Positions 11,583 to 61,425 of a stretch of DNA of 64,000 bases are shown piece by piece; the first letter of the stretch is position 1; each line of letters begins with the position of its first letter. The position numbers and the translations under genes were made by a program. Under the pieces are notes generated by a model, which worked only from the letters and a program-made list of their open reading frames with translations, did not search any database and had not been told where the DNA came from. This DNA is from Microgenomates group bacterium GW2011_GWC1_46_15 (GTDB taxonomy: Bacteria; Patescibacteriota; Microgenomatia; UBA1400; UBA12028), in assembly GCA_001002285.1 (NCBI GenBank), contig LCLX01000003.1, positions 2,560 to 66,559 of the forward strand, given 5' to 3'.

Positions 11583-11644
11583 TCACCTTACGAAAACCAA
11601 ATTGGGGGTATGAAAAGGGTAGACCCGACCTTCCCTTTTCCGAC

Positions 11645-14161: not shown

Positions 14162-14315
14162 AAAGATCGGGACTTAAAGGAAACTAAAGCCACACAATGA
14201 TGTATCGGCCTTTATGCCAGTTATACATTAAATTTCCACTGGCGCCCTATATGGGTAGATCGGGACTTAGCCAAGAGCCAATTATGCTTACCCAAGTGGT
14301 AAGTCCCGAACTTAG
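14162..14315 (+). repeat. composite palindromic intergenic repeat, copy 1 (part A GATCGGGACTTAAAGGAAACTAA + about 70-nt hairpin part B)
   Basis: Part B is CCCTATATGGGTAGATCGGGACTTAGCCAAGAGCCAATTATGCTTACCCAAGTGGTAAGTCCCGAACTT, containing an inverted TCGGGACTTA/TAAGTCCCGA 10-bp stem. The same two-part element recurs at 22792-22955, 40726-40892 (inverted) and 54613-54775 (inverted). Confidence 0.8.
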
Positions 14316-22791: not shown

Positions 22792-22955
22792 AAAGATCGG
22801 GACTTAAAGGAAACTAAGGGTTGGGATTGATATACAAATCCCTTTTATACATTTTGGCAAGTTATACACACGATTTAGCGAACCCCCTATATGGGTAGAT
22901 CGGGACTTAGCCAAGAGCCGATTATGCTTACTCAAGTGACGAGTCCCGAACTTGT
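22792..22955 (+). repeat. composite palindromic intergenic repeat, copy 2
   Basis: GATCGGGACTTAAAGGAAACTAAGG ... CCCTATATGGGTAGATCGGGACTTAGCCAAGAGCCGATTATGCTTACTCAAGTGACGAGTCCCGAACTT. About 90% identical to copy 1 in parts A and B. Directly abuts the start codon of the minus-strand gene at 22788. Confidence 0.8.
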
Positions 22956-23273
22956 TATTCCCGCATCTTTTCACACAGAAACGATTCGGGTATTTCGTGG
23001 AGATACTCAACACATACTGCTTTTTCTTCGCACATTGCATAAGACATGTGGATATTTCTCAAGTGATTTTTATCTGTTTATAAATAAGGAAATGAAGAAC
23101 AAGAAAAACAAACAATACACAATGTGTTCAAAAAAGGTTGAAAACTCGAGATATCGCCCGCACTGCCTCCCTAGTTTTGATACATTCTGATACTTATATA
23201 TATCAGTGAAAAAAGAATTGTGAAATATAGATACCACAATCATCCGGATACTATATATGCCTGGAAATTTCCC

Positions 23274-23390: not shown

Positions 23391-26300
23391 ATGAGTCCTG
23401 CCGACATCAACTACTCACGACCTCAATTTTCCGTTCCGGAGCACGTTATCGCGCGTATTGAAGCGGTGCTTAAACAGTTTGCAGAATTTTTATTTGCTCA
23501 ACAGCTTTCAAAAAAATCAGTGACAAATTATCTTTCAGATGTTCGCGTGTTTTTAGAACACCGTTTGGCAAACAATCAGGCGTTTCAGGAACGCGCGGCA
23601 GAAAAAGACCTCAAGCAGTGGCTTTCTTCCCTTGAGCAGGATATTACAGCCTACAGGGCAGAACTCCTCGAGGAAGCCACCCCTCTCTCGACAATTAATC
23701 GGTACATGGCCTCATTCCGACAATTTGGCGCATTCCTTACTGCTGTCCACCAGATCAGCGCCTTCGGTCATTCTTCTGGCGAGTATCTTAAAAACATTTC
23801 ATTTTCCCCCGAGTCACACCTACATTCCTTGAGTGACCGACTGCTTCAGCAGTTCAAGTTGGCGCTCACCCATCGTGGTTGCTCAGACTCTACAATCAAG
23901 AATTATTGTGCTGATATGCACCAATACATGCAATGGCTAGGAGAAAAACCGGTTTTCCCAGATCAGATCAAACGGGGTGTTGCGGAATATTTGGGATTTT
24001 TGCGGAAAAAAGGTGCGTCGCGCGCAACAAAAGCACGTGCTCTCACCAGTTTAAAGCAGTTTTATCGATGGGCAAACGAGTCCCAGTACATCAAAAAGAA
24101 TCCTTTTGCATCAAAAATGGCAGAGGTTGGGACTTTCGTTAAAACTGCGTTTACTCCACTTGCCTTTTTTGAGAGGTTCCGAAAAGCGCCTCAGCAAACA
24201 CCTCAAGAAAAAGTTTCAGAAGAATCCTCTCGAAGACTCTCTCCAATCACCCAAGCCTACGACCGGTACACCCGTTGGCCGGTGAGTTCATATCTTCATC
24301 TGGCCATCTTAATCCTTTTTGTTACGTTGCTTGGTGTGTTCGGCTATCAACAGCTCTTTTTAAACGCCGAGAAAAAACTTGCGTTCCCCACCGCCCTCAC
24401 CCGCCCCAACCGCACTCTGTCTTTCCAGGGTCGTTTAACAGACAGCACAGGCCAAACACCAATCACAACTGCAACAAACTTTACATTCAAGCTTTTTGAC
24501 GCACTTACCGTTGGAAATCAGCTCTGGAACTCGGGAACCTGTAGCATCACGCCGGATCAGGACGGCGTATTTTCGACATTGCTCGGAAGCAGCTGTGGTG
24601 CGGAAATCGACAGTGGCGTGTTCAGCGAAAACCCCAACGTATACCTCGAGGTTACGGTGGTCGCGGAGACACTCACCCCAAGGCAACAAATCGCGACGGT
24701 TGGCTACGCATTAAATGCAGAAACACTTCAAGGCTACCCTGCCTCTGCCAGCGCAGTAGAAAACACGGTGCTCATCATGAACAACTCTGGTCAAGTGCTC
24801 TTGGGGAACGCTTCACCTGTGCTCCGTTCAAACTCCGGCACGTTTACAGTCCAGGGCAACGCGCTTACGCTCTCCACAAACACGGGAACGGCTGGCAACA
24901 TTTCGATTGCGCCCGATGGAGTGGGCCAGCTCAATCTCCTCGGTGGAACCACAACGCAGGATTTTATCAGTGTAACGAACGCAAACCTCACAACGGGAAA
25001 ACTGATAAACGGCACGGTCGGAAATAACAATACTGGATACAAATTTTTATCATTTACCGGGGGGTCTGTCCCATCTGAAAAGTTCTATGTGGGGGCACTT
25101 GGAAACGTGTATGCAGGCAACTCAATTTTTGCTCCGGTGGCTACAATCAGTGCAACAAATACCAGCGCTACACCGCTCATAATCAACGGAACTGGAGGAC
25201 AAATTTTCTCAATTGCGAATAGTGGAAACATGACTGGAGCAGGAACGCTTACAGGACTTACGGGATTAACATCGAGCGGCACAATCACATTCTCGGGGTT
25301 AAACACAGCGGGCGCAGTAGTGTACACGAACGGCTCGGGCGTACTGGGAGATACAGCACAAGGTGTGAGTGGGTACGTTCTCACCTCTGGTGGAGCGGGC
25401 ACGCCAACATGGCAAGATCCAGCGACACTTACCGGGGCAAACTATTGGCAGTTGAACAGCCAAGTGTTGGCACCAGGAAATACAACACTTGATCTTGCAG
25501 TTGGCGGAAACTCAACAGCGGCCGCACTGTTCCGCGTGTCCGGCACGCCAACAACTTCAGGCAATGGCGCGGTGTTGTCGTCTACCACACTCACAACCGG
25601 AAACCTCCTCAGTCTTTCATCAACCGCAACATCACTCACTTCCGGTAAGTTACTTTCACTCGACTGGTCGCCGGGAAGCGCGATCACAGCAACCGGTGAC
25701 TTGTTTAACATCAACATCGGCTCAAATGGAACCGTGGGAAATTTGCTGAACATCACGGATAACGGGTCGTCTCTTTTTTCCGTTTCAGAAACCGCGGTGA
25801 CGAGTAATTTACCAACGTCGTTTACCTCATCGGGTGATGTTTTAATCGCGTATGATCTGATTTTTACTAATCCAACCGCATCGTACATAAAATCTTCGGC
25901 ACCACTGTATTTGCAGGCTGGTGAAATGTTTAACTCCAGCGATCTCACGCTCCGCACGTTCAACAAAGGCAACGTGATTATAGACTCCGAGGTACTTGTT
26001 GCAAACTACGCCGCCACTGTTGCATCCCAGTTGGTTGTTGGAACAACAACTGCACCCGCGAACATTGGCGGGCTGTATCTCACAAACGCCACAACATATG
26101 GAAAAGCGTTGGCAATATTGAACCAAACCGAGTCGCAGGATATTTTTACCGCGTCGGCATCTTCGGTAGCAAAGTTCACAATTGCAAACAACGGCAACCT
26201 CACAGCAACAGGGACAATCACCGGACTGACCGGCATTACTTCAAGCGGAACGATTACGTTTAGCGGGCTTAACACCGCGGGCGCAGTGGCATACACAAAC

Positions 26301-29300
26301 GGCTCGGGTGTGCTGGGGGTGACGGCACAGGGCGTAAGCGGATATTTGCTGACCTCTGCCGGAGCAAGCACACCAACATGGACTGATCCTGTAACGGTTG
26401 GTACCAACTACTGGCAGTTAAACAACAAGGTGTTGGCACCGGGCAACACGACGTATGATTTGGCAATTGGCGGAAACTCGACGGCGGCGGCAAAGTTCCA
26501 GGTGTTTGGCGAAAGTGGGAATGCGACATCCACCGGTACGCTCACGTTTAACGGGGCAGCATTGGCTAACAATGTCATTGCGGCACGGCGCAATGTTGGA
26601 CTGCAGATTGGCGACACGTATACCGGAAACATTATTATTGATTCAAACAATTGGTTGAAACTCAATACAACAAACAACCAAGCGATTACCACAGGTACGG
26701 GTCTTATCACGTTGGCCGGCAATGTAGACGCAATCAACGGGTTGGACGTGACCACCGCGAACTTAACCGTGGGCGGTGCAAACTTTAGCGTTGCACCAGG
26801 AACCGGAAACATTACGACTGCCGGCGACCTGGCGCTCAACGGCGGCGATCTCACCTCTATCGCGACCACGTTTAACTTTGACATCGGCAACACTGGAGTG
26901 CTGAACTTCCGCGATGGGACAAACACGCTGTTTTCCATTACCGACGGTGGAACACAAGGCAACGCCAGTTCTTCGGGAAACCTTACTCTTGGCGGACAGT
27001 TCCAACTGGGACGATTCGCAACCGCACCTACGGGACTTGGAACAGGCGCGCTCTACTACGACACCACATCCAGTAACATCTTCTTTTACAACGGAAGTAC
27101 TTGGACAGCGGTAGGTTCGGGAAGTGGCGCAAGCTGGTGGAATCAGGCTACCGGCGCCCTGTATCCACTCAACTCCACCGTTGATATGTTGATTGGCGGA
27201 CAGGCAACAACAAGCGCAAAGTTTGCGTTCATCAACGTTAACAGTGGAAATCCAACGGCAAGTATTTCCGGGAACCTCGCGATTGCCGCTCCCGCAGGGG
27301 CAGATCCGGCAACAACATACGATGTTTTAAACGGCGGGACATATAACCTTCGCACATCCGTTGGTGGAGACTTGGGATTAACATCCAGATTGTTTATTAC
27401 AAACGGCGGAAATGTCGGAATCGGGACTGTCAATCCAACGTCATTTAAACTTCAAGTGGCTGGCGATACCGGTCCAAATGCGGATGCATCGTATGATCTT
27501 GGTTCAACTGCGCTCCAGTGGAAAAATATCTATCTCTCTGGTTCATTATGTTTCGACATGGCGGACTGCGCGACAAGTTGGGCAACCGTTGGAACAAACT
27601 ATTGGCAGTTGGACAATCTTGTACTTTCACCGGGGAATAGTACGCTCGATATCGCGGTGGGCGGGAGTGCGACAAGTTCGGCAAAGTTCCAGGTGTTTGG
27701 GGTTAGTGGAAACGCAACAACAACAGGAACGCTTACGTTTAATGGTGCAACGCTCGCCAATAATGTGATCGCGGCACGACGCAATGTGGGATTACAAATT
27801 GGGGGAGGAACAGAAACAGGAGACATTCTTCTTGACTCGAACACATTCCTCCGGTTAAACACAATCAATAACCAAGCGATCACCACGGGAACCGGGCAGA
27901 TGACCCTCGCCGGCAATGTGGACGCAATCAACGGGTTGGACGTGACCACCGCGAACTTAACCGTAGGCGGCGCAAACTTCAGTGTTGCACCGGCAACCGG
28001 CAACATTATTACTGCTGGTGATCTTGCACTCAACGGCGGCGATCTCACCTCTATCGCGACCACGTTTAATTTTGATATTGGGAATACCGGGGTGCTCAAC
28101 TTCCGCGATGGGACAAATACGCTTTTTGCGATCAACGATTACGGCACGCAAGGGTACGCAACATCGTCTGGTGACCTCGGCCTTGGCGGCCAGTTTCAAC
28201 TTGGGCGATTCTTTACAAACCCCACCACGATCGGCAAAGGAAGCCTTGTATACAACACCGCAACCGACTCTGTGTATTACTCTGATGGTTCAACATGGAA
28301 CCAATTTGCGAGTTACGCGGCCGCAACGGTGTGGACCGATGGTGGAACATACCTCTACCCAACAAACCGTGAGTCCGCGCGTATCTATGATGCTGGCGGC
28401 ACCGATTACATTGACATCGCACACGACGGCACAAATGTAGTTATTACAACCGCAAATACCACAAAAATCACGATTGACGCTGCGGTAGATCTGGCAAGTA
28501 CACTCAATGTTGGCGGCAACACGATTACATCTCCGGGAGATCTTTCGCTCAATGCAAGCGGAACAAAAGTCATTGTGTCGCCGGACTTACAGGTGAACGG
28601 TGGTGATATTCTCGGTGCCAGTGGTGAAACACGCATCACGCTTGTGGATGCGCTCAATCTCACAAACTTTAGCGGGAGCGTAGACATTAACGGAAGCTAC
28701 GCGGGTAACGACGGCTTTTTGACCGCCAACCGCACCGCAACGATCAGTTCGCTTATTGCAACCGACACCCCCCTTACGCTCCGCGACAACAACGCGATGA
28801 ATCTGCTCACCGTTGCAAACAGCGGGCTTATTACCGTGCGCACCGCAACGATTAGTTCACAGGCGGTGAATAGTCTGGATACGGTGGCATTCACGCTGAA
28901 TGCTGCGAACTCGCTCACAACCCAGGGAGCAAAACTTCTCTCTGTTCAAAACGCGACCATTGAGAAGTTCTATGTGGACAAAGACGGAAACATCTACGCG
29001 GCCGGAACAATTTTGGCGGGCAACGGCATGGGCATGCTCATGCAGAATAAAAGCGGTGGCACAGTGGCACAAAAAGCGATTGTGATCGTGGACACGTCAA
29101 ACAACTCCGCGTTCACGACTACCACAACGCCGTACAGCAAAGGGATGTACGGCATTATTACCGGCGTTGGGCTTGGAACAATAAACGATGCAAATAGTGA
29201 TGGAAACTGTGACGCCAATGATATCTGTATGGTGGCCGTGGGCGGCGAGGTGAATGTAACAATCAAAAATACGACAACGGTTGCCAAAGGCGACTATGTG

Positions 29301-32300
29301 TACACGAGCGACACCGCGGGGTCTGCGGTTACGTCCGCAAAATTATTTGACGGCATGCTGGGCGTGGTCACGAACACTTCTACCTCCGGCTCCGGCTACG
29401 TCAAGTTCATCTTTAAACCACAAACGCAGGTTACGGCCGCGGCCAGTATTGACAAGGGCAGCAAGTACAACGAGTACAAGCTCTATGCCGACGACTACAC
29501 CGGTGTGGGCGAAGGCACCAGTCCCAACGACAACCTCAATACCAAAGGCATGTACTTTGACAATCTGCTGGACACCACCAAAACGGACAGCGCCAACACC
29601 ACGGTTTCTGCTCCCACGCAAGTGAGTGCCACCACCGGCAATCCCACCCCCGCCGCCCCATTCCGCGCCGGCCTCATCGGCGGCCAAACCATGTCCGCGG
29701 CTACCACCGACAACGCCGGGAACACGTATCTCGGAAGCTCCACCGTCAACAAGACCGTGTACTACGACCGCACGCGCGACTCCTCCGCCCAAGTCCAAGT
29801 CGAACTCGGCATCGATCCCAACTGGTACAACGGCGTCACCCTGGCCGTCGCCACCACCAGCGCGTCATTCTCACAAAACTCCACGATCTGGACACCCAAC
29901 CCCAACCTCTCTAGCACCTACAACGGCTCGCTTCTCCAGGCGAGCGGAACGTACGCGAGCAACGCCAAAACTATCTACGTCACCATCAAGTCTCCCACCA
30001 CGTTTGATTGGACAAACTATAACGGAAATTCAGCTACGGGAGTAACCGTCACCCCAGGGACTAGTCAGTCCCTGGCTGGAACGGGCGTCTCGGTCAAATT
30101 TACGGATGCCAAATACAACACCGGAGATGTCTTCAAAATCGCCTCCTGGTTCGTGGAACCCTCCGGCTCAACCAGAGGCACCAAACAGCAGTTCCCCGAA
30201 CGAGCGATCATCGTAGCCAGCAATACAAATGTTGACATTATCGATGCAGACACGCAGAAACTTTGGATGGATTTTAGTAGCGGCGGGACATGGCTGACGT
30301 CAAATAATTTACTCGCCGCATCTGGCTCTAACGTCGTTTCATCTGTTTCTGTGTTGAACGGAAAAATGCATGCAGGATTAAACGCGAATAACCAGAGATT
30401 GGTAAAAATCGATTTTTCCACTGATAGCGGTGGATCATATCAGACTACAGGATGGCGTGATTACCTGGGAAATATAGCCGAGCGTAACGGTGGAATGGGA
30501 GTAAGCGGATTAAATGGAACTGTTAGTATAGTAAATAACAACGTCAACGACGTAGCGGCCAACGTCATCCCCAACGCTCCCACCCAAACCACGACCGTCA
30601 GCGGCTGGGGATATTTTAGCTTGAGTTCTGCCAGCGAAACCGTCAATCTGCCCTATAAATTCAACACTAATCCGAACATCGTCATCACCTCCGCCGGTCA
30701 CTCCGGCACCACCACGCCGGTCAATCTGGCCAGCTGTACCACCGCCAGCGCCAAAACTGTCGTCACCGATAACACCACGACAACCAGTTTTACCGCCCGC
30801 GAAAGCGCTTTGGACGCGACCAACTATCAGTGCTATTCCTGGACCGCCACCGGCCAGGTCAGCCCGAGACAATTTGTCGGTGCCGCCACCGACGCAGGAG
30901 TGACCGTCGTCAACGAAACCGACGCCACGGCCTACTCCTATTCCGATGCCACCAATGACGCCTATCAAAATGTAGCCCTTACGTCCAAAGGTACGCTCTA
31001 CGGCCTGAACTCGACGGAAAATCAGCTGGAAAAATGGACTTCCATACCCGCCGATACTGCCGCCAGAACGAATGGCACGCCGGACAACGTCTGGGCAAAT
31101 GCCGGCAACGACTCCTTCACCAAGCTTCTCATCCACGCGGATGGCACAAACGGCGCAACCACGTTTACTGACAGTTCGCCGAATGCCCGCACGCTGACAA
31201 CAAACGCAAACGCACAAATATCTACTGCTCAAAAGAAATTCGGTCCCTCTTCCATACTTTTAGACGGCACCGGCGATTACGTATCCGCCGCCGACAGCGA
31301 AGACTGGAATATTGGCAATGGAGATTTCACTATTGATCTTTGGGTTAACTTTTCAGTTTTACAAAATACTATGTTCGTCGAACAAACAACGGACGTAAAT
31401 AACTATCTTCAGCTTTACTGGACTACGTCAAATATCATCTACATGGCCATAAGAAATGCAGGAGCAGACAACATTAGCTTCAACGGAAGCTGGACACCGT
31501 CAACAGGCACATGGTACCACGTTGCGTTTGTCCGATATGGTACTCGGGCGAACATCTACATTAATGGGATATCCGTCGCCACCAAAACCAACATTAGTGC
31601 CGGAGCGGCAAACTACACCTCTGCGTTGGCCGTCGGCTGCTCTCCGTTCAACGGTTGTGGATATGATCTTAATGGCTACATGGATGAATTCCGTTTTACC
31701 AAAGGGCATGCCCGCTGGACCGATAACTTTACCGTCCCCACGAACCCGTACGCGAAAAATGTTGCGATTGCCCCGCTCCCGCCAACCATCCAATCTTCTC
31801 CCAGCAATCTTTCTGTAACCGAAGGAACCTCTGCTGTAGACGGAACCAGCGATACGCTGTACATCGGAACCAATCAGGGGGTCGCTGTCATTCAGGATAA
31901 ATCCACCGTCAGCAGCCGCAACGATAACGGCGACGAACAAAGCGGCTCCGCCAAATACTACACCAAAGACTATGTTTCTGAAGAACTTATGGGTAACGTC
32001 GTCGGCATGTGGCCGCTCACTTCCGGTTACGGGTCGGGGCTGTCCGACGCATCATCAAATCAAAGCGGAAGCGCGTTATTGAACGGGACCACCGCACCTA
32101 CGTACACTGCCTCCGGCGTCCGCGGACAGGCTGCCACGCTGGGCGCCTCTGCCGCAACGGCAACAACGAGCGCAGGACTCGTAAACCAAAACATCAACAC
32201 CATCAAAACCGTTTCCGCCTGGATTTACCCCACCACGCTCACCACTACCAACGGCACGCGGGAGATGGCGGTCTCCGCCGACGCCAACTCCGCCTCGGTT

Positions 32301-35300
32301 GTTTCCTGGGGCATCGGCACCAAAGGCGACGGCACCAACGCCAACCTCACCTGCTTCGCTGGCAACACCGGCCCGACCGCGACAGACTTGGGCACCGGCA
32401 TCCCGGCCGTGGTCAACACCTGGTATCACGTCGTTTTGACCTCCGATGGGTCAAGCGCGCTCAAGTGTTTTGTCAATGGGACACTTTATAACTCAACGAC
32501 TCTTTCCGGCACAGCCCAGACCCCCACCCGTTTCCAAATCGGCGCCACCCAGGCCACGACGGCGTTTAATGCGCTACGGGGCCGCGTGGACGAGGTGATG
32601 GTCACCGCGACACAACTTTCCGCTTCCCAAGTTAAGCGTATCTACGAGGTCGGCTACCGGGCGCTCCAGTCCCACGCGACCACCCTCGGCGGCGGAGGCG
32701 CGGATGCCAACCAGCAGTTGGGCTACATTTCGACAGGTACTAATACAGTTGGCGCGGTTGCTCCGGATTACAATAACCAGTTCATGTACGTGGGCCTCAA
32801 CTCGACGACGCTGGGCGGGCTGTCTAAGATTGACTTAAATAGTGATACGAATATCAAAACATACAATTCTTCTGCCAACGTCCCCACCGGCGGGCCGCTC
32901 CTTATTGACGAGGACACCACGTCCCTGGCCGTCGGTTATACGTTGGAAGCGGTCGGCTCGGCGGCCTCCGGCGTCAAGACCATGGGGGTGGACAATAACG
33001 CCACGGCCACGTCCGGCAACTTCATCAGCAAAACCTACACCACCAGCGAGTCCTTCAGCCAGGCCTATATCTGGTCGCAATATGTGACGGACTCCTCCGA
33101 TGCGTCCAATACGGTCACCGTGTGGGCTTCCAACGACGCTGGATCAAACTATTACCAATGCAGTAACACCAATACCAACACTGGCCAGTCGCCCACCGAG
33201 TACGAGTACTTCTGCCAATTCAATACGCCCGGCTCGTCGCTCAAACTCAAGTACGTGTTCGCCCGCGGCTCCACCAAAACCAACACCTACCTCACCCGCT
33301 ACGGCGTGGCCTGGATCGGCAGCGACGTCGTGGGCGGCGCCCCCGGCGGGAATGGCCTGTACACGAACAATGGAACCGCGGTCGCCAACGGCAGTTACCT
33401 GGAAGTCGCGCATAACCAAAACACAAGTGATCTTTTGACCGAAGGCTGGATTTACGACGGAGCCAAGTGGATCGAGATAGATGACCAAGCCAAGACCGAC
33501 CACAACACCCAGGATCCTACTCTCCTCTCCTGGTACAAGATGGAGGAAGCCTCCGGGGACTTGGACAACGCCCAAGGCACGGCTGCCCGGGACTTGATTG
33601 ACTTGAACGGCCCCACCTACCAGGCCGCCGGCCGCGTCAACAAAGCCATTACCCTGGACGGCACCAACGACTACTTCTGCACCGGCTCGGGCACCACCTG
33701 CGCCTCACCGTCAAACTTTACTACAGACACGAATCGTACGCTCAATACCAATCTTATTTCGTACTGGAAACTTGATGAAACTTCCGGCAGTCGCACGGAT
33801 TCGGTCGGAAGTAATACGCTCACTGACAACAACACCGTCACCAGCAATCCCGGAAAAGTCGGCAACGCCGGGCAGTTCATCGCAGCCAACACTGAGTATT
33901 TGAGCATCACAGACAATGCGGCTTTGAGTACGGGGGATATTGATTTCACTTTTTCAGCATGGGTGTATATGGATTCGCTTTCTACAGACACGCAAGTTCT
34001 TGGCAAGTGGTCTGCATCAGCAGGACAGTACGAGTATCTTTTGGAGCGCGGCAGTGCAAACAAATTCCGGTTTTATGTAAGCAGTGATGGCTCTACCTAT
34101 ACTTCCGTTCAAGCTGCTACATTTGGCGCAATGTCAGCAAATACGTGGTATTTTGTGGTTGCCTATCATGATAGCGTCAACAATACCATCGGCATTAGTG
34201 TCAATAATGGCGCATTTGATACCGTTGCCCACACAACAGGCGTAAGAGATGGTACGGCACAGTTTGACATTGGTGCGTTGGCTGCGGGTTCATTTCCATT
34301 CAACGGTCGCATTGACGAAGTTGGTTTTTGGAAAAAAGTGCTTTCCACCCAAGAAATAACTGATCTATATAACTCCGGCAACGGGAATAGATTCCAAGGC
34401 ATGAACTTTATCGCTTCCGACTCCTTCACCCTGGGCGGCTGGTTCAAGCACGCCACCATCGCCACCAATCCGGATTACATGGTGGCAAAGACGGATGGTG
34501 GAACAGCAGATGACACAAATACAAAACTTCTTCTCCACGCAGATGGTGCAGATACCAGTACTACTTTTACCGATGATTCCTCGTCCCCTCACACCATGAC
34601 CGCCGTCGGCAACGCCCAAATAGATACCGCCCAAAGCAAATTCGGCGGAGCGAGTGGATTATTTGATGGAACCGGAGACTATGTTACAAGCCCAGATCAT
34701 GCGGATTGGGATTTTGCGTCAGGGGATTTTACGATTGATTTCCGGATAAGGTTTAACGTTGTTAATACGGCATATCTTGTTACCCATGGGGCAAGTATGG
34801 CGGGAGGGGATGGGTGGTTTGTTAGATATAACGCGAATAATCTTGAGTTTGCGTATAACAGCACAACGATAACAAAGGCTTGGACGCCTTCAAGCGCTAC
34901 GTGGTACCACGTTGCTGTTGTACGAAGCGGAACAAATTTGTATATGTTCATTGACGGTACGCAAATTGGAACAACAGGATCAATTTCAGGTACTATTACA
35001 GATAATGCAAATCTCTTAGTAGTTGGCGAGCGAGATTCGGGTCCCGGTGCTCCCTTAAATGGCTGGTTAGATGAAGTTCGTATTAGTAAGGGGAGCGCCC
35101 GTTGGACAGCAAACTTCACTTCGCCAACATTATCCTATGGAACCAGTGGCCCCGGCTACAAACTCCTCATGGAATCCGATGGTGATCTGACATTTGGCAT
35201 TGACGATGACAGCATAAGCTTCCCCGAAGACTCTGCCACCTCGACCGTGGCCACGTATGACGACAATGCCTGGCACCATGTGGCCGCGGTCAAGAATGGG

Positions 35301-38300
35301 ACAACTAATATCAAGCTGTATGTGGACGGTGAGGAGGTAGCCAGTGATACGAGTATTTCTGCCACCGAGACGCTGGCTAATGCCGGAGCTTTCTATTTAG
35401 GTATCGACGGTGACGCCACCAGCAACCCCTGGGCCGGGCAACTGGATGAGACGTTTGTCTATAGTCGGGCGTTGACTGCCGGAGAGATCGGGGAACTGTA
35501 CCGGAGCAGCAAACGCTTTGCCATCGAGCAAGCCGATGCCAATACGGTCCGGCTCTACAACTACTCCGGCGCGGCGCAGAATTTGCGACTGGACGTCATC
35601 ACCGGCGGACTGGGCCGGAACGCCGGCACGGTGTCGCTCCACCCGGATGCCGCAGACGTGGATGCGCAAGCCAACGGCAATGCCATTTGGGTGAACAAGA
35701 CCGGCGACTGGGGCAATCTCATCAAGCTCCAGGGCGACGGATTGGACAAGTTCGGGGTGGACTGGCAAGGCCACGCTACGGTAGCCGGAACACTTACGAT
35801 CGGGTCTTCATCCTTAAAGCTCTCGGATTTCGGAAGCTATTCTACTATTCAATCTGCCGGAAACCTTGCGCTCCAGGCATCCTCGGGCAATGTGGGCATC
35901 GGCACATTAACTCCCAGTAAAAACTTGGATGTGGCCGGCGCCATCGCGTTCCGCAACAAATTCAACTACCAACAGACCATTACCCTCACCAACGGCGGCG
36001 GTACGCTTACAAATTACGATGTTCTGGTTCAGGTGGATACAGCCTCCCTCATTTCCGCCGGTAAAATGCAGTCGGACTGCGATGACATCCGCTTCAGCGA
36101 CAGCGACTCGCAAACGCCGCTCACCTACTGGATCGAGCAGGGCTGTAACACCGCTGATACACAGATTTGGGCCCGCGTCCCTTCGATTCCCAACGGCTCT
36201 AAAGACATCTATATGGTCTACGGAAATAGCAGTGTATCTTCTGCCAGCCAATCCTGGAGTGGAAATTTTATCTCCATGTTCAACGCCTCTGTCCCAGCCG
36301 GTTGGACGCAAGTTTCCGCCCTGGACAATAAATTCCCCCGCGGCAACACTAGCTATGGCGGTACGGAAGGGGCGGATACTCATACGGTCGCCATCAGCGG
36401 CACAAGTTCCCAATCCGGTGGAAAGGTAACTTGGAACAGTTGTGCAAATTCCGTTGCCTACCAATATCACACTCATACATACAGTGCCACCAGTGGTTCT
36501 GCCAACAATATTCCTCCTTATGTTAATATCGTCTTCGGCAGCAAAAATGCACCGGGACTGATTCCCACCAGCGGTATCGTTTTCTACAACAGCTCGCTGG
36601 TGTCCGGCTGGAGCAACGTCACTGTCCTAAATACCAATTTCACCCGGGGTAGTACTACGTATGGAGGTACTGGTGGCACCTCTGCTGCTCACAACCACAC
36701 CATACCCGCCATGACCACGAGTGGACCCAGTGCTACTGTTTCTACCTGCCAGTACGACATCGGAGCTACCAGTGGCGGTCAAACCCACTCAACCAGTTCC
36801 ACTACCACAGCCAACAATGCTGATACATCCCTACCTCCATACGAAGACTTTATTCCAGCTACCCCCGACCAAGCACGTGCGTATGAACAGGGCGCACTCG
36901 TCGCTTTTGATGCTACTCCTCCGTTGGGTTGGACCAGAAAAAGCAGCTTAGACAGTGGCTTCCCCCGCGGAAACAGTACCGCCGGTGGTACCGGCGGCGG
37001 CGCGACCCACACTCATACATATTCTATTGTCACTAGCGCAGCTACTAATGATACCTCGGGTGAAAATGCTGTTGGCACCGGCACCTCCAACGATGGCCAC
37101 GCCCACACGCTCAGCGGTTCACCATCCGGCACTAATGTCCCCGCCTACATGGATGTCCTTTACTACACCAAAAACACCATGTCTGTTACTATCGGCTATA
37201 GCAGCGAACAGGTCGGTTCCAGCAGCCCCATCCAAATTCTCTATGACGATACCACGACCAATCTGGGCGTGGGTCAGATTACACCTCTCTGGAAGCTCCA
37301 CGTAACCGATACCCAAGCTGCGACTGCTTCTGCGATGATTGAAAACCTTTCTGGTGTAGGATCCAACAACCCCACCGCCCTGGTCCTGCGTCTGGGAAGC
37401 GACGCCACCAACCCTGATACCGGCGACCGGTTTATCAACTTCATGAGGGGCGACTCGACGATCATCGGCAAAATTCAAGGCAATGGGTCAGGAGGAATCT
37501 CATATACTACCGCAGGCGTGGACTTTGCCGAGTATTTCCGCAAAGAAGATCCCCATGAGGAGCTTCTTCCTGGTGACGTGCTCTGCCAGGGGCCTAGCGG
37601 CGGGGTGACCAGGTGTACTGCTTCCGCTACCGGACCTATGGGCGTTATCTCAAATAAAGCAGGTTTTGTGGGCGGATCAGACCATGAAGGTGATCCCGGC
37701 TACGTCATTGTCGGATTGATCGGACAGCTTCCGGTCAAAATTGACCCGGCCTCCTCAGCAATTGCCGTGGGCGACTTCCTCACTTCTTCAACGAAACCCG
37801 GCCTGGCCATGAAAGCCACCCGCGCGGGGTACGTCGTCGCCAAAGCGCTGGAGGCATGGCAACAGTGTCCTGGAGCGACCGCAGGGAGCGATATCTCACA
37901 AAATTCAGGGGATTCTATCGGCCCTTCGGGCCTCCAGAATGACACTTGTGATAAACCCACGATTGAGGCCTTTGTCCATCTGGGCTACTTTGCCGGCGAG
38001 CTAACCGCGGATGGGTTTTTGAATCCAGACTATGTCGCGCAAGGTGCCGTATCAGTTTCTGCACAACAAGTGCTTGCCGATGCTATCGCCTCTCCAAGCG
38101 GATCGATCGCAGACATCGGCCAAACCGCAAAAGACCAGTTCGGGGGCTTGAGCTCTGCAAACCTTGATCTCTTCAAAGCACTGTGGGCAAACGTCCAACT
38201 CCTCACATCCAAACTTATCAAGACAGAAAAACTTGAGTCCCCGCTTGCCGAGATTCAACACCTTGACGCAAACATCATTCATACCGCAACGCTTTCTGCT

Positions 38301-40096: not shown

Positions 40097-40709
40097 CGAT
40101 CTTTCCTTTCACAAACGTTACCGCGTCTTTCGCATACCAATCCGGGAGATTCCAAAGATCAACAAACATGTGTCCCAGCGTCACCTGAGATCTGTATGTG
40201 TAGAGCCGTTCATCTGCTAAAAGAACAAAAAGATTCAGCGGACCGTTCGTGCGGTGTCCCTCAAACCGTTGACCAACGACAGAAGGATCGCGGTGGTAGC
40301 AGTACACTTTATCATAATCTGTCGGCGGCTCACCAAACCGTTCACGCAGTGCGGTGTATGCCGTCGGCAGTGTTTGATCCGGCAACAACCCCTCTATTTC
40401 CGTGACCGGTAAGTTTACACTCATCTGCAGAGTCGGCTGAAGTCTGTGATGATTTGCCCAATGGTACAGAATTTTTTCCGCATCTATGACCTCTGAATGG
40501 CGCTTCCCTATCCGCACCGCCCCCATGCGACGAAGTGGTTGGATTGCGAGATGAATCGTGGATGAAGACAGGTGGAGTTCTTGGGCTAATTCCTGTTGAC
40601 CGAACGAGAAGTTCTTTTTCTCCAACGCTTCATACAGAAGGTGATTCCACACATATTCGATTTTTTTCATATATTTTATGCCTATATTCGATGATATACG
40701 AATATACAA
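40080..40709 (-). CDS. HTH (winged-helix) domain protein, probably co-transcribed with the NTase-like gene
   Basis: 209 aa (the true start may be the internal MKKIEYVWNHLL...). N-terminal wHTH-like segment (...FGQQELAQELHLSSSTIHLAIQPLRRMGAV...). Architecture is reminiscent of AbiEi-type antitoxin/regulator partners of NTase toxins. Confidence 0.4.
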   Translation of the reverse strand: MYIRISSNIGIKYMKKIEYVWNHLLYEALEKKNFSFGQQELAQELHLSSSTIHLAIQPLRRMGAVRIGKRHSEVIDAEKILYHWANHHRLQPTLQMSVNLPVTEIEGLLPDQTLPTAYTALRERFGEPPTDYDKVYCYHRDPSVVGQRFEGHRTNGPLNLFVLLADERLYTYRSQVTLGHMFVDLWNLPDWYAKDAVTFVKGKIDAILS

Positions 40710-40725
40710 TGGGTGTCAATGGCAA

Positions 40726-40892
40726 GTTCGGGACTTACTACTTGGCTTGGGCAGAACAACCCTTGGCTAAGGCCCGACCTACCCATAAAAGTAGAAAGAA
40801 GTTGATAAATAGTACTATTTCCTCAATTAACGGGAAGTCCCAATCTTTGGCAGTTTCAAAAGGGTAGACCCGACCTACCTATTTCATACCCC
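40726..40892 (-). repeat. composite palindromic intergenic repeat, copy 3 (inverted orientation, more diverged) plus a GGGGTATGAAA/AGGGTAGACCCGACC-related tail
   Basis: GTTCGGGACTTACTACTTGGCTTGGGCAGAACAACCCTTGGCTAAGGCCCGACCTACCCATAAAAG = reverse complement of the part-B variant. GGGAAGTCCCAATCTTT is an A variant. The tail AAAGGGTAGACCCGACCTACCTATTTCATACCCC matches the fragment at 11597-11630 (GGGGTATGAAAAGGGTAGACCCGACC). Confidence 0.65.
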
Positions 40893-54533: not shown

Positions 54534-54612
54534 ATCGAATAATCCCCTTTCATAAGAATAGGGGGATTGTACCAGATGTAGGAAGAGATGACAATGCTGG
54601 AACTGATGAAGA

Positions 54613-54775
54613 GTTCGGGACTCGTCACTTGGGTAGACACAAACGACTCTTGGCTAAGTCCCGATCTACCCATATAGGGCATACATTAGATTACACATAT
54701 AACTCACGAAAACAAACTAAAAAGTCCTATATGTCAGCCCCTTGATAAGGTTTTCTGTAAGTCCCGATCTTAATC
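54613..54775 (-). repeat. composite palindromic intergenic repeat, copy 4 (inverted orientation) between rpsA start and 5S rRNA
   Basis: GTTCGGGACTCGTCACTTGGGTAGACACAAACGACTCTTGGCTAAGTCCCGATCTACCCATATAGGGC is the reverse complement of a part-B variant. GTAAGTCCCGATCTT is the reverse complement of part A. Confidence 0.8.
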
Positions 54776-55576: not shown

Positions 55577-55905
55577 GCCGACAATATGTTACAAAGGTAC
55601 GGTTTTACGTACACTCTTTATCACTAAAGAGATCCGACTATATCTTCATCCCCGAAAAGGGATATTTGACGTATAGTCTGTGAGGATTTCCTTCGCTTTC
55701 GCTTAGGATCTTTCCTGCTGATTGTCTTGCGTCAACAATTGACTGGTTTACTATTTTCACTTGCATGCAGATGCGAAACAAGTAAGTAAACATTAACGAG
55801 GGTTTCCAGCATTTAGTCAAATTTATAGTGGTTAAACCACTGTTACATTTTTGAGTCCTACCTATCTTCAAACGTCTATCTGTAACTTAGACAGCAAGGC
55901 CTTAT
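55577..55905 (-). mobile_element. small ORF-less group I intron inserted right after ...ACGTCGTGAGACAGT (I-CreI/I-CeuI-type homing-site region, about E. coli L2593-2610)
   Basis: R element CACAGACTATACGTCAAAT and S element GGATGAAGATATAGTCGGATC. Two short P9-like hairpins follow (CTCTTTAGTGATAAAGAG, GTACGTAAAACCGTAC). The exon resumes TGTCGGCCTCTATCC. Confidence 0.5.
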
Positions 55906-55910
55906 GCTCT

Positions 55911-55944
<34 letters not shown>

Positions 55945-56009
55945 ACGCTTTAATGGGCGAACAGACCAACCCTTGGGAGCTTCTTCACCCCCAGGATGCG
56001 TTGCATATG

Positions 56010-56886
56010 ATTTCATGTATTTCTACAGATATAGACTATATCTTCACCCTTCTTCGAAGGGGCTCGGCATATTATAGGAAGTAAAATTTGTCATGATTAT
56101 GACAACTATCCTATCTCGTTCTTTCGAACTCAGTCGTTACGGGGTCAAAGGAAGTTTATATTTCATACATTCAACCATATGCGGTCGAATGATGTTCGCA
56201 AACATACGTAAATCTCGAGATGGAATATGCAATCGAGCAAATCCACCAGCAAAATGTACTGCTGTGTGCAAACTGAAATTCTCAAATAGTGTTTGTTGAA
56301 GTACTTCATGTTCTTTTTGTGTAAAAGACGATGAACATATATACGCACCAGATTTATCCGTACGCAGATATCCATCATCCATATACCACACTGCTAGAAC
56401 AAGAGGCGATTGCAAAAGGACCTGAATATGTTCAGGTATACGTTTTTTCCCGTTATGATAAAAATCCATATAGTGTTGATCGAAAATATTTAAACTTAGT
56501 GTTGAAAACCTCCAACGTTTTGTTTGTTTTCCATTTCGACCAGCATGCCATAATATATATGGCTGCTTTTGTACATACATATTGAATTCTTTATAAAACC
56601 AGAAAACATATTTCTCTTGTTTTTCGCCACGCTCGATTCTTAATCGAACATGTTTTCCATTCTTTTCTAAACACCCATCACCTAATATTTTTCCAACAAG
56701 CATAGCGTGTTGTTTCGGTGATAAACTTCCTCGACTTCCCACGGTATTGCCATGTTTCATAGTTCATTTCAGCGTATCATAGATACCCGAAGAAAAGAAG
56801 AAGATGAAACGAAGGGTTCACCGTTATTAGCCAAGTGTTTTGTTTCAAAAATTACTCTTTGAATGACCCAGACCCTTTCGGGTTAA
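56010..56886 (-). mobile_element. group I intron with LAGLIDADG homing endonuclease ORF, inserted after micro-exon GATGTCGGCT (about E. coli L2455-2460)
   Basis: The 5' region TAACCCGAAAGGGTCTGGGTCATTC parallels the start of the degenerate copy. R-like CCCCGTAACGACTG and S element GGGTGAAGATATAGTC (reverse complement of about 56027-56042). The exon resumes ...CATCCTGGGGGTGAAGAAGCTCCCAAGG. Confidence 0.55.
56137..56760 (-). CDS. intron-encoded LAGLIDADG homing endonuclease (double-motif)
   Basis: 207 aa. Motifs ...LVGKILGDGCLEK... and ...LAVWYMDDGYL.... Start MKHGNTVGSRG is duplicated (truncated) in the adjacent degenerate intron. Confidence 0.8.
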   Translation of the reverse strand: MKHGNTVGSRGSLSPKQHAMLVGKILGDGCLEKNGKHVRLRIERGEKQEKYVFWFYKEFNMYVQKQPYILWHAGRNGKQTKRWRFSTLSLNIFDQHYMDFYHNGKKRIPEHIQVLLQSPLVLAVWYMDDGYLRTDKSGAYICSSSFTQKEHEVLQQTLFENFSLHTAVHFAGGFARLHIPSRDLRMFANIIRPHMVECMKYKLPLTP

Positions 56887-56896
56887 GCCGACATCG

Positions 56897-57240
56897 CAAA
56901 CAACCTAAAAACTTTCGTTTATAGCCTGACTATACCTTCATCCGCTAAGGGCGGATGTGGGCGTGTTATGGAATATGTAATATAGAGATATACTCCATCC
57001 AGAATTCTTCATTCTGAGTCGATACGGGGTCAAGATACTTTTGTAAAAGTATCCGACTTCCCACGGTGTTGCCATGTTTCATCATATTTCTACGGTATCA
57101 TAAAGACCCGAAGAAAAGTAGAAGATGAAACGAAGGGTTCACCGTTATGAGCCCAAATTCTCTGTTTTGTGCTTGAGTAATCACACACAGAACAGAAACA
57201 GCACCATCCTATTGCTAGAATGGGACCCCGATGTTAATTG
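56897..57240 (-). mobile_element. degenerate ORF-less group I intron copy (deletion derivative of the neighbouring intron) inserted after ...GGTTTGCTACCTC (about E. coli L2449)
   Basis: Contains a 110-nt duplicate of the 5' part of the downstream intron, including a truncated HE start (ATGAAACATGGCAACACCGTGGGAAGTCG = MKHGNTVGS...). It then jumps to an S element GGATGAAGGTATAGTC. A micro-exon GATGTCGGCT follows. Confidence 0.5.
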
Positions 57241-61352: not shown

Positions 61353-61425
61353 TGGACCCAAGCGGGCTCGAACCGCTCACCTCATCATTGCAAATGATGC
61401 GCTCTACCAGATGAGCTATGGGCCC
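61353..61425 (-). tRNA. tRNA-Ala (anticodon UGC), upstream of 23S on the same strand, no 16S between or nearby
   Basis: Reverse complement is GGGCCCATAGCTCATCTGGTAGAGCGCATCATTTGCAATGATGAGGTGAGCGGTTCGAGCCCGCTTGGGTCCA. G3:U70. Anticodon loop TTTGCAA. Confidence 0.88.

Follow-up and report, generated by a model that had tools for sequence, protein, structure and literature searches.

Palindromic intergenic repeats of a Microgenomates genome as probable non-autonomous elements of a RAYT-family transposase

What is a palindromic repeat of about 160 bp that stands in front of several genes in a reduced CPR genome, and how could it have come to be there? The window, that is, the whole 64-kb stretch of DNA that was analysed, contains four full copies of such a repeat (c1 to c4) and two mini-hairpin fragments.

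Layout of the repeats and their palindromic core

The initial annotation had described four copies sharing an upstream part A and a downstream part B. Alignment and an element HMM both recovered the same copies, layout and coordinates, with c3 placed here at 40724-40849. Run over the window, the whole-element HMM found exactly c1 to c4 (E 1e-29 to 3e-49) and one further weak match, at the mini hairpin (40866-40882). The repeats and their neighbouring features are as follows.

11602-11640, + strand: solo mini-hairpin fragment (fragment from 11597), GGGTAGACCCGACCTTCCC with flank GGGGTATGAAA, between the leuS stop codon and comEA
14162-14315, + strand: c1, full element; A box 14163-14184; nhmmer E 1.1e-44
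14253-14269 and 14300-14313, + strand: part B of c1, GTAG plus 5' arm, and 3' inverted arm
14146, - strand, and 14335, + strand: neighbours of c1, ATG of leuS and ATG of a 241-aa gene
22792-22955, + strand: c2, full element; A box 22793-22814; nhmmer E 3.5e-49; abuts the start of a PaaX-like gene (- strand), with the promoter-like site of a 5377-aa gene about 320 nt downstream
22823-22842, + strand: terminator-like hairpin of c2, followed by a T run
22893-22909 and 22941-22953, + strand: part B of c2, GTAG plus 5' arm, and 3' arm
40691-40719, - strand: promoter-like site TTGACA-17-TATCAT (11/12), facing an HTH/AbiEii-like gene pair
40724-40849, - strand: c3, variant and degenerate copy; nhmmer E 1.3e-29
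about 40835-40847, - strand: A box of c3 (AAGATTGGGACTT)
40760-40784 and 40725-40736, - strand: arms of c3, the 5' arm of the AGGTCGGGCC subtype, and the 3' arm
40863-40879, - strand: mini-hairpin fragment GGTAG[GTCGGGT]CTACC (fragment 40859-40892), directly upstream of c3 in element orientation
54566-54594, - strand: promoter-like site TTGTCA-17-TACAAT (10/12, TG before the second hexamer), facing rpsA
54612-54775, - strand: c4, full element; A box 54750-54771; nhmmer E 2.6e-47
54647-54671 and 54612-54623, - strand: part B of c4, GTAG plus 5' arm, and 3' arm

Each full copy adjoins the start of a minus-strand gene, as had been noted before. Copy c1 occupies nearly all of the 188-bp divergent gap between leuS and the + strand 241-aa gene, and so also faces a + strand gene. 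Copy c4 starts 12 nt past the 3' end of the 5S rRNA (54788) and lies between it and the rpsA promoter-like site. The most divergent layout is that of c3: its A box is degenerate (AAGATTGGGACTTCCCG), its spacer is shortened and its 5' arm belongs to a variant type (AGGTCGGGCC). In the fragments at 11597-11640 and 40859-40892, the parts do come in the opposite order, as first described. Beyond c1 to c4, we found a secE copy and a partial mreB copy near the transposase gene discussed below. In all, about 110 kb of sampled sequence yielded seven loci in addition to that of the transposase. Irregular spacing confirms that the repeats are not a CRISPR array. A 99-aa ORF with its start codon inside c2 lacks conservation, its version in the sister lineage being 75 aa; the elements are therefore without coding capacity, in keeping with the initial annotation. 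The repeats explain spurious ORF calls, namely 'proteins' of 99, 75 and 60 aa that begin with MGRSGLSQE and N-terminal extensions of real genes, and they may add to contig breaks in these MAGs. A giant ORF of the sister lineage contains a core-like pair, which we record as a curiosity only.

A 13-nt mini-palindrome, AAG[WTCGGGA]CTT, forms the core and occurs three times per element: in the left A box, as a second direct copy preceded by GTAG, and as an inverted copy at the right end. It is strongly enriched in the window. The 13-mer AGATCGGGACTTA (up to 2 mismatches) had 10 matches where 1.01 were expected, a count reached in none of 100 shuffles, and TCGGGACTT (up to 1 mismatch) had 27 matches against 12.4 expected. 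Core subtypes AGATCGGGAC and AGGTCGGGCC coexist. The elements are about 155-165 bp long and end in imperfect 14-bp terminal inverted repeats.

The right arm is able to pair with either direct copy of the core. A second helix, GGGTAG/CTACCC, crosses the first one, and its hairpin presents a TCGGG loop. Both helices are about 92% paired, as opposed to at most 53% when the partners are slid; for the 5' arm against the 3' arm, 91% of cells are paired and at most 53% in slid registers. In part B, the GTAG stands 1 nt 5' of a stem of 8-10 bp with a 31-nt loop. The 10-bp stem proposed earlier is perfect in c1 only: in c2 and c4 it comprises 8 bp and an additional G-T wobble, and in c3 it is interrupted by a mismatch. 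Folded as single-stranded DNA, the A box and the 3' arm close the whole element, and the GGGTAG/CTACCC hairpin is nested within. In the mini hairpins (ATGGGTAGG[TCGGG]CCTACCCAT at locus L024, and 40863-40879 in the window), GTAG and CTAC lie inside the stem.

Such helices could belong to a structured RNA family, be it of small RNAs or of 5' leaders acting in cis; a small structured RNA family had been among the first candidates. Part B would then be an H-type pseudoknot with P1 GGGUAG/CUACCC and P2 UCGGGACUU/AAGUCCCGA. Its folding beats that of shuffled sequence (z -1.95 to -3.4), and this reading would also fit the well-paired helices, in which all variation is G-C/G-U or U-A/U-G and favours the A-to-B strand, and the fact that all copies point at a downstream gene. 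However, Rfam 15 gave no element match, either over the whole window at gathering score or for c4 and its flanks at E ≤ 1. No compensatory changes were found among the helix pairs of the copies, where no pair is altered on both sides, and P2 of c3 carries an uncompensated A-to-C change. The best promoter-like sites (those of c3, c4 and the secE copy) come after part B, which would place B outside the leaders. Loop and spacer drift at a neutral rate, and an RNA-gene model leaves unexplained the three sites that bracket the transposase ORF. A structured RNA is therefore very unlikely.

A RAYT locus built like the elements

The MAGs of the window (Candidatus Pacebacteria, Microgenomates/CPR) encode one Y1/HUH transposase, in a gene that adjoins rplL. 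Window and transposase belong to the same MAGs because their accessions fall in the same assembly series: LeuS of the window is HAV15644, KKT98002 and KKU23232, the transposase is HAV15623, KKT98663 and KKU24266, and the S1 protein of the window (HAV15487) belongs to the same series as the transposase and NusG (HAV15617). The transposase (L007:6011-6547, and the intact 189-aa form P0121) matches Pfam Y1_Tnp with 30.2 bits (gathering score 23) and carries the HUH motif (NHFHLL) and the Tyr motif (RYIHRNP). Its sole NCBIfam match, NF047646, is the REP-associated tyrosine transposase (E 1e-11, 44 bits, against a curated cutoff of 80). The same model was the sole NCBIfam match for all 26 aligned CPR homologues, and no IS200-type NCBIfam model matched the transposase or these homologues. 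A PDB sequence search, with the transposase alone or with a 26-sequence profile, gave no match. The AlphaFold model (mean pLDDT 90.5) had as its best PDB match 4ER8, the complex of E. coli TnpA-REP with a REP hairpin (E 7e-8, TM 0.70), and IS608 and ISDra2 TnpA followed more weakly (E ≥ 4e-5). We conclude that the transposase belongs to the RAYT family (REP-associated, Y1/HUH).

Each transposase-bearing contig examined contains one locus, directly after rplL. The order rplL-transposase was found in every contig examined, with an HTH_17 gene next wherever the 3' flank is intact, and the synteny rplL-RAYT-HTH_17 is retained in the species with transposase identities of 67% and 52%. Among these contigs, none of which is a complete genome, the gene thus appears to be single-copy and vertically inherited.

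The transposase locus reads, in order, rplL stop, A box TAAGATCGGGACTTA, terminator hairpins, GTTATTTG, a hairpin, ATG and ORF. The hairpin preceding the ATG is GTATATGGATAG[ATCGGGA]CTACCCATATAC, and the inverted core AAGTCCCGATCTT lies inside the last codons of the ORF; locus L022 has TAGATCGGGACT 5' of the transposase ATG and, again, AAGTCCCGATCTT within the last codons. The three core sites around the gene have the same order and orientation as in the elements, which bears out the initial suggestion that the three arms resemble a recombination module. Element positions 3-118 align to the region upstream of the transposase gene (nhmmer E 1.4e-11). After deletion of the ORF in silico, the locus and part B are collinear in each of the five copies (5/5), except for a 22-nt insert in the elements. 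The position of the ORF is exactly that of the 31-nt loop of the elements, and these therefore resemble ORF-deleted copies of the transposase locus. The link extends to the surroundings of c3. The 3' flank of the RAYT gene is homologous to the right flank of this copy, ATTGACACC, and the mini hairpin at 40863-40879 is built like the one preceding the RAYT start codon. Remnants of a duplicated gene leader were considered and rejected: the copies have unrelated flanks, and it is the transposase locus with which they share homology.

Related species retain this arrangement with altered cores. AGGTCGGGCC flanks the gene on both sides in L024 (transposase 67% identical), AAGGCCGGGACTTCCC occupies all three sites in L025 (52%), and in L026 (41%) both flanks carry inverted palindromes of 29 nt that contain GTAG and an ATCGGGA core. 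Across three species, the cores have changed in concert, and together with the transposase.

Could the repeats instead be MITEs of a DDE-type insertion sequence, for example of the IS1595 family, with 14-bp terminal inverted repeats (AAGATCGGGACTTA, TAAGTCCCGAACTT)? Their imperfect 14-bp termini and their length of about 155-165 bp would fit, and an IS1595-family gene lies directly beside the RAYT in L012. However, the IS1595 sequence in L012 (beyond position 10000) has no core-like match with up to 2 mismatches, and the insertion sequence is missing from the intact loci L022 and L028-L030, which keep the inverted core. The boundaries of the copies showed neither a target-site duplication nor a target motif. 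Since the cores also co-vary with the Y1 transposase across species, a DDE-type origin is hardly credible.

Taken together, we consider it probable that the repeats are non-autonomous REPIN/TIRtron-like elements of the single RAYT encoded just after rplL in the same genome. They would be low-copy, old and RAYT-dependent, with a geometry other than that of canonical REPs. The general idea of a REP-like or MITE-like repeat was thus well placed, given that a RAYT-type Y1 transposase of the same genome is bracketed by the same three cores. Absent from the first reading were the link to a transposase, the additional helix, the constant gene-ward orientation and the non-canonical REP geometry.

If it works as E. 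coli TnpA-REP and IS608 TnpA do, the RAYT would bind the hairpins of the elements in single-stranded DNA beside the GTAG foot and would nick near the bound hairpin. In the past, the RAYT may have copied the unit into intergenic DNA in this way. We infer from the same comparison that the RAYT could bind and cleave the elements and mobilise them in trans. The connection between enzyme locus and element is unusually legible here, the element being the locus minus its ORF, and bears on the origin of REPINs from RAYT loci.

Conservation, gene-ward placement and possible host roles

Copies c2, c3, c4 and the secE copy are common to lineages about 90% identical and are therefore old. No filled/empty-site polymorphism was found between two lineages at this distance. 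The sole structural change between lineages is a 97-bp internal indel at c3, between direct repeats; the mini hairpin at 40863-40879 forms one boundary of this segment, which is absent from the sister lineage (L010). Between lineages about 91% identical, the whole secE copy is 88.6% identical, which equals the background; both of its arms are free of substitutions, and its A box has a single one. Because the arms are unchanged while the remainder is at background divergence, the comparison indicates that selection acts on the cores. It also led us to reject general purifying selection on the whole element, as the secE copy is at background divergence outside the cores. Copies c2 and c4 are 99.4% identical (163/164) between lineages whose flanking genes are 87-95% identical, and c4 sits in a near-invariant rRNA region.

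Searches beyond the window returned few further copies. A strict B-core pattern, which misses known variants, found four stretches in a metagenome collection, namely the orthologues of c2, c3 and c4 and one new stretch, with one match on a 201-kb contig. An exact 25-nt B-core pattern had 0 matches in the genome contigs, and a scan of viral contigs for the element likewise had 0. A LeuS search of the genome contigs gave one unrelated proteobacterial match (23% identity). For the ORF at 62840-63679, towards the right end of the window, no protein record was found. A protein search with the part B peptide (MGRSGLSQE..., joined with the reverse-frame peptide, 40 aa) found only the orthologues of c2 and c4.

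All seven loci (7/7) lie in 5' intergenic regions, and the direction from A to B points at the downstream gene on the same strand. GC skew indicates a single replichore over the whole window, and at 7/7 loci the orientation of the element tracks the downstream gene, not the direction of replication. Purely single-strand, fork-coupled insertion would not predict this orientation, and selection or function may therefore be involved as well.

For c3, c4 and the secE copy, the promoter-like sites of the neighbour genes lie downstream of the element, 5-33 nt past its right end (TTGACA-17-TATCAT, TTGTCA-17-TACAAT and TTGAGT-17-TACAAT). The site at c3 begins 5 nt past the element, with its first hexamer inside the homology to the RAYT 3' flank, and that of rpsA begins 18 nt past c4. 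A promoter between A and B, with the GTTATAYR motif as -10, was rejected, as no consistent -35 hexamer was found and promoter prediction found no promoter-like site within c1 or c2. This motif is homologous to a conserved TTGTAAG-type sequence upstream of the transposase gene. Terminator-type hairpins are present in the c2 spacer and in the transposase locus.

These observations bear on whether the repeat is a host cis-regulatory DNA cassette, promoter-proximal and kept by selection whatever its origin. Such a cassette may act as an insulator or terminator, contribute a -35 or UP sequence, or provide operators for the RAYT or its HTH_17 neighbour. The gene-ward placement at all seven loci of a single replichore, the promoter-like sites next to the right end, the -35-like hexamer stretch beside c3 that is homologous to the RAYT 3' flank, the terminator-type hairpins and the near identity of c2 and c4 all fit this reading. 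By eye, -10-like hexamers of leuS (TACAAT) and of the PaaX-like gene (TATGAT) also lie 5-7 nt from the A box, which would then cover the -35 and spacer region of both genes. Against it, the background rate of the secE copy outside its cores argues that constraint on the whole element is not general, c4 is embedded in near-invariant rRNA surroundings, and c1 and c2 have no predicted promoter-like site within them. The downstream genes are unrelated in function (S1, a giant surface-type protein, an HTH/NTase pair, secE-nusG and mreB). The sample, at seven loci, is moreover small, and a compact genome may tolerate insertions in 5' gaps only. We regard a cassette of this kind as unlikely.

A related proposal joins host use to a RAYT origin: ORF-less copies of the locus would have been domesticated as portable intergenic cassettes that combine a terminator or insulator, protein-binding cores and promoter-proximal sequence, with the RAYT retained. 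They would stand in one fixed orientation before housekeeping and surface-protein operons, and the single RAYT with its conserved HTH_17 partner may be kept for binding or maintaining the sites. We hold this to be improbable; if true, it would be a host-serving REPIN-RAYT partnership, the first described in the phylum. The strict 5'-intergenic and gene-ward placement would, if confirmed genome-wide, define a testable promoter-tied repeat family in a minimal genome.

Likeness to known repeat systems

RAYT/REPIN systems have been studied mainly in Proteobacteria, and none of the papers listed by our literature search connects RAYTs or REPINs with CPR/Patescibacteria. With regard to taxonomic reach, thousands of CPR proteins nevertheless resemble the transposase (6441 matches at E ≤ 1e-5).

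In overall form, the repeats recall the Correia elements, MITEs of Neisseria that are about 150 bp long, intergenic, bounded by terminal inverted repeats, adjacent to promoters and able to form long hairpins. Their repeats, however, measure 26 bp and they show a TA target duplication, neither of which is seen here, and they are not known to have a Y1 transposase partner.

The IS200/IS605 family and its miniature derivatives (PATEs) share with our system the Y1 HUH fold, subterminal hairpins as likely recognition elements, the lack of a target-site duplication and short ORF-less derivatives. However, the gene described here is single-copy at a fixed syntenic site, whereas tnpA is multi-copy, and its flanking cores are inverted, whereas the left-end and right-end hairpins of IS608 are direct. 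The NCBIfam match is to the RAYT model only, and the fold is less similar to IS608 and ISDra2 TnpA than to 4ER8.

Closer parallels exist with REPIN-RAYT systems or REPtrons, such as E. coli TnpA-REP with its REP/BIME repeats and the REPINs of Pseudomonas (Bertels & Rainey 2011, PMC3116915; Ton-Hoang/Messing 2012, PMC3479197). Here too, a single-copy, vertically inherited Y1/HUH transposase, syntenic in three species, is flanked by short palindromic cores that also occur scattered between genes. Pairing of inverted cores gives a hairpin, as in REPINs, with GTAG directly 5' of the arm; the coexisting core subtypes (AGATCGGGAC and AGGTCGGGCC) resemble the Y and Z REPs of E. coli; and the best structural match of the transposase is 4ER8. 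In a canonical REP, GT[AG]G stands 0-2 nt 5' of a stem of 7-20 bp that is fully paired and closed by a loop of 2-5 nt, or else of a bulged long hairpin (PMC6006769). The repeats depart from this geometry, the dispersed copies having a 31-nt loop and the mini hairpins carrying GTAG within the stem, so that the latter resemble the 'double foot' REP type and not the canonical form. The core is just 13 nt long, its stem measuring 3-4 bp and its loop 7 nt, and in the hairpin that joins arm to arm the loop is 31 nt. About 100 nt farther upstream there is another direct core, the third, with a terminator-like hairpin after it, and the element in its entirety is collinear with the transposase locus once the ORF is removed. 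About seven copies are known here, as against tens to hundreds. REPs are mostly found downstream of coding regions, between convergently or unidirectionally transcribed genes (PMC3733652), whereas the copies described here lie in 5' regions, and in a CPR host.

TIRtrons or TIRYTs (Di Nocera et al. 2013, PMC3733652) differ in other respects. The GTAG beside the arm, the presence of three sites, not two, and dispersed copies that carry the entire upstream region of the gene set our elements apart, and the GGGGWSAS motif of some published TIRs (PMC3733652) is absent from them. As in TIRtrons, however, a RAYT-like gene is accompanied by terminal inverted repeats that are not canonical REPs, and one of these repeats extends over the gene's 3' end ('3'ov'), here in the last codons. 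TIRtron repeats form moderately abundant families, some of them partly self-complementary (PMC3733652), and at least seven dispersed loci were found here. Judged by sequence, the features that define TIRtrons/TIRYTs, that is, a flanked RAYT-like gene, an overlap with the gene end and a moderately abundant repeat family, appear to be present together at this locus.

Layout and occurrence of the repeat family

The four repeat copies in the window align across about 155-165 nt, and both direct reading and the alignment bore out the four copies and the A/B layout first described for them. In its own orientation, an element begins with the A box (AAGATCGGGACTTAAAGGAAAC), the left direct core, which an AT-rich spacer of 33-70 nt separates from part B. 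Part B consists of (C)CCTATATGGGTAGATCGGGACTTAGCCAAGAG, a variable stretch and then CTACCCAAGTG..AGTCCCGAACTY. The cores are mini-palindromes of 13 nt, AAG[WTCGGGA]CTT. The 10-bp stem proposed for part B is perfect in c1 and imperfect in the other copies, and c3 is a degenerate variant.

The repeats are far commoner than chance. With up to two mismatches, AGATCGGGACTTA had 10 matches in the window against 1.0 expected, a number reached in none of 100 shuffles, while TCGGGACTT with at most one mismatch had 27 against 12.4 expected. A full-element HMM returned exactly c1-c4 from the 64-kb window (E 1e-29 to 3e-49), besides a weak match on a mini hairpin at 40866-40882. The two related fragments reported in the initial annotation proved real in a repeat search. 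Its statement that the repeats lack coding capacity also holds, as the ORF that opens at an ATG within part B lacks conservation. Spurious ORFs and N-terminal extensions called from this ATG (22891-23190; 14197/14251-15060), with peptides beginning MGRSGLSQE, yield 'proteins' of 99, 75 and 60 aa and lengthen a 241-aa gene to 269 or 287 aa.

The LeuS protein of the window is identical to that of Candidatus Pacebacteria/Microgenomates group MAGs GCA_001002295.1, GCA_003525295.1 and GCA_003484165.1 from Rifle-type groundwater metagenomes; the next-nearest LeuS is only 69% identical. A species-representative genome collection, scanned for further copies, gave none that were useful. Scanning metagenomes with a strict 23-nt B-core pattern returned four stretches, three of which come from a sister lineage (genes 87-95% identical) and are orthologous to c2, c3 and c4. 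The fourth, L007, adds a copy ahead of secE-nusG; sequence surrounding it revealed two partial copies, one preceding a Y1 transposase gene and the other, with two cores, upstream of mreB. Seven known loci and the transposase locus thus lie in roughly 110 kb of genome; at least one known variant escapes the strict pattern, so the total may be higher, though the copy number does not look like one of the order of hundreds.

Elements of the family, the gene ahead of each (A-to-B direction) and promoter-like sites just beyond the right end
c1, 14162-14315, +: 241-aa gene
c2, 22792-22955, +: 5377-aa gene, about 440 nt away
c3, 40724-40849, -: HTH/AbiEii-like pair; TTGACA-17-TATCAT
c4, 54612-54775, -: rpsA; TTGTCA-17-TACAAT with TG
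secE copy, outside the window: secE; TTGAGT-17-TACAAT
Two-core variant AGTTCGGGACTTA - 53 nt - AAGATCGGGACTTCCC, L028:10328-10405, -, outside the window: mreB, within the 115-bp divergent gap ahead of it, ending 12 nt from the ATG
Partial copy, outside the window: transposase

The transposase locus and its relation to the elements

The intact transposase has 189 aa (P0121; loci L022 and L028-L030). Its score against Pfam Y1_Tnp is above the gathering score, and its single NCBIfam match is the REP-associated tyrosine transposase family NF047646, which is also the sole match for all 26 aligned CPR homologues, with every score below the strict cutoff of that model. The protein carries HUH (NHFHLL) and tyrosine (RYIHRNP) motifs. 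Its AlphaFold model (mean pLDDT 90.5) best matches 4ER8, the E. coli REP-associated transposase with a REP hairpin (E 7e-8, TM 0.70, rmsd 3.2 A), followed by IS608, ISDra2 and IS200 TnpA (E >= 4e-5). At least one CPR homologue already bears the JGI label 'RayT', and accession series assign the gene and the window genes to the same assemblies.

In the L007/L012 strain, a 178-aa protein is encoded directly after rplL, and an IS1595-family gene takes the place of the transposase C-terminal end. Some strains carry a DDE transposase gene of this family as an insertion at the 3' end of the REP-associated transposase (RAYT) gene (L012:10525-11205; L007:6535 onward), shortening the protein from 189 to 178 aa and removing the stretch with the inverted core of intact loci. 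Most contigs stop at this point.

Order of features at the transposase locus
1: rplL stop codon, then 7 nt
2: A box TAAGATCGGGACTTA
3: one or two intrinsic-terminator hairpins
4: ...GTAAGTTATTTGTAAG...
5: hairpin GTATATGGATAG[ATCGGGA]CTACCCATATAC
6: ATG and ORF
7: ...CCAAAAGTGCAAGTCCCGATCTTCTTCCCTATTGA, an inverted core within the last codons

The locus has the same three sites as the dispersed elements, in matching order and orientation, with the ORF occupying the place of their 31-nt loop. In an nhmmer search, element positions 3-118 align to the region upstream of the transposase (E 1.4e-11). Fusing the 5' hairpin to the final 45 nt of the locus gives a product that is collinear with part B in all five full copies, which differ from this ORF-less locus by a 22-nt insert. 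From the nhmmer alignment and the in silico collinearity, we conclude that the elements appear to be ORF-less versions of the transposase locus.

Among the candidates initially put forward, a REP-like or MITE-like repeat gains support from the presence in the same genome of a RAYT whose gene is bracketed by the dispersed cores. We consider it likely that the elements are REPIN/TIRtron-like non-autonomous partners of this RAYT that arose as ORF-less copies of its locus, and that they are old and vertically inherited. By its family and fold, and by the E. coli and IS608 precedents, the RAYT would bind the element sites, nick DNA there and mobilise the elements. That they are instead MITEs of a DDE-type transposase is extremely unlikely: the target-site duplications that the initial annotation proposed looking for were not found beside the copies, and the neighbouring IS1595 sequence present in L012 lacks ends matching the elements.

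The cores change in concert from species to species. The related species at L024, whose transposase is 67% identical and keeps the rplL synteny, has ATGGGTAGG[TCGGG]CCTACCCAT as its 5' hairpin and GGCCCGACCTT at the 3' end, and AGATCGGGAC is changed to AGGTCGGGCC on both sides of the gene. Copy c3 and the mini hairpin of the window have this same second core subtype, so two subtypes coexist. At L025 (52% identical), AAGGCCGGGACTTCCC is found at all three sites, and two upstream cores form GGGAAG[GCCGGGA]CTTCCC hairpins. On a 1.1-Mb Microgenomates contig (L026; 41% identical), the gene lies between inverted palindromes of 29 nt that contain GTAG and an ATCGGGA core. One syntenic gene accompanied through speciation by its flanking repeats matches the signature published for RAYTs and their REPs or TIRs (PMC5581495, PMC3733652, PMC6006769).

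In three species, the next gene after the transposase is a MerR/HTH_17 gene. This excisionase-like gene (103-108 aa) is always 3' of an intact RAYT (L022:2814-3131; L025:883-1194; L028:8028-8354), with a conserved CTATTGACA motif between the two in the three species. Its product may be a partner DNA-binding protein.

Position, folding and constraint

The 5' intergenic placement noted initially holds for every locus, and each copy, read from A to B, has a same-strand gene ahead of it. GC skew is negative throughout the window, which is therefore one replichore, and within it c1 and c2 lie on the plus strand and c3 and c4 on the minus strand. Element orientation thus follows genes rather than the replication fork, although with seven loci this is suggestive only. 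Since promoter-like sites stand just after the right end of c3, c4 and the secE copy, part B is probably upstream of these promoters and outside their leaders. To the left, -10-like hexamers read by eye lie 5-7 nt from the A box of c1 (TACAAT, for leuS) and c2 (TATGAT, for a PaaX-like gene); a two-hexamer promoter scan called no promoters left of these copies. That the elements now serve mainly as promoter-proximal regulatory cassettes is compatible with an origin as ORF-less RAYT locus copies, and we regard it as unlikely.

Folded as single-stranded DNA, the A box and the 3' arm close the whole element, with a GGGTAG/CTACCC hairpin nested within; alternatively, the 5' arm of part B pairs with the 3' arm. 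The GGGTAG/CTACCC helix crosses the arm helix, and both registers are about 92% paired, compared with at most 53% when partners are slid. Pairs vary only between G-C and G-T or T-A and T-G on the A-to-B strand; this would agree with a functional role for that strand, and it fits DNA and RNA alike. The initial suggestion of a structured RNA family is quite improbable: there is no Rfam match, no pair in the copies compared has both sides altered, as compensatory change would require, and the promoter positions speak against it.

Compared between lineages of about 91% identity, the secE copy as a whole reaches 88.6%, no different from background; its two arms have no substitutions and its A box has one. 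Selection or gene conversion therefore acts on the cores. Copies c2 and c4 are identical at 163 of 164 positions between lineages, with flanking genes 87-95% identical; since c4 is situated in a near-invariant rRNA region, we draw no general conclusion from these two copies. A 97-bp segment of c3 (40787-40883; mini hairpin, A box and spacer), bounded by direct repeats AT(A/G)GGTAGGTCGGG, is missing from the sister lineage (L010:1100-1145), reflecting either a deletion or an insertion between two cores.

In the rRNA region, between the Rfam-called 23S rRNA 3' end (57168) and the 5S rRNA (54904), the minus strand carries a group I intron (55614-55898, called by Rfam) and, at 56137-56760, a LAGLIDADG_2 ORF. 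Copies of a 59-nt direct repeat at 56774-56832 and 57095-57153, 93% identical to each other, bracket this zone (55614-57168). The 23S match, at 3716 nt, exceeds its 2925-nt model, and a LAGLIDADG_1-type ORF (57903-58829) falls within it. Upstream of the tRNA at 61353-61425, the window yielded no 16S rRNA. At the right end, a perfect 56-nt GC-rich inverted repeat (62850-62905 and 63945-64000), unlike its surroundings in composition, could be a foreign element or arise from misassembly; an ORF at 62840-63679 is absent from the gene index.

The 5377-aa ORF ahead of c2 (23391-39524, +) has Phage_int_SAM-type matches, which come first among the Pfam matches listed, and Laminin_G_3/DUF2341 domains. 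Internal repeats at 25206-28157 are ~1.0-1.2 kb apart and 66-83% identical. The sister-lineage ORF has an inverted core-like pair, AGGTCGGGAC ... GGCCCGACCTACCCAT (L008:5551-5684), of which the window counterpart (~24127-24250) keeps only a decayed half, AGGTTGGGAC; the repeat may have inserted into the gene here long ago.

Comparison with known REP systems

Among the results listed by our literature search, no paper combined RAYT or REPIN terms with CPR taxa. The family is real; mobile-element and CPR specialists would find it of moderate interest, and it is useful in annotation. Like REPIN-RAYT systems and TIRtrons, it has a RAYT in the same genome, a single syntenic locus, a gene flanked by inverted copies of a dispersed repeat, and inverted repeats able to form a hairpin. 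The elements depart from canonical REP geometry (PMC6006769), because the loop is 31 nt long or GTAG falls within the stem. Lineages about 90% identical share orthologous copies and showed no filled and empty sites that would speak for movement. They further differ from described systems in their CPR host, in a three-site build with an embedded terminator-like hairpin, in collinearity with the whole transposase locus, and in lying in 5' regions, whereas REPs are mostly downstream of coding regions (PMC3733652). The family is thus a variant of a known system, not a new class of element.
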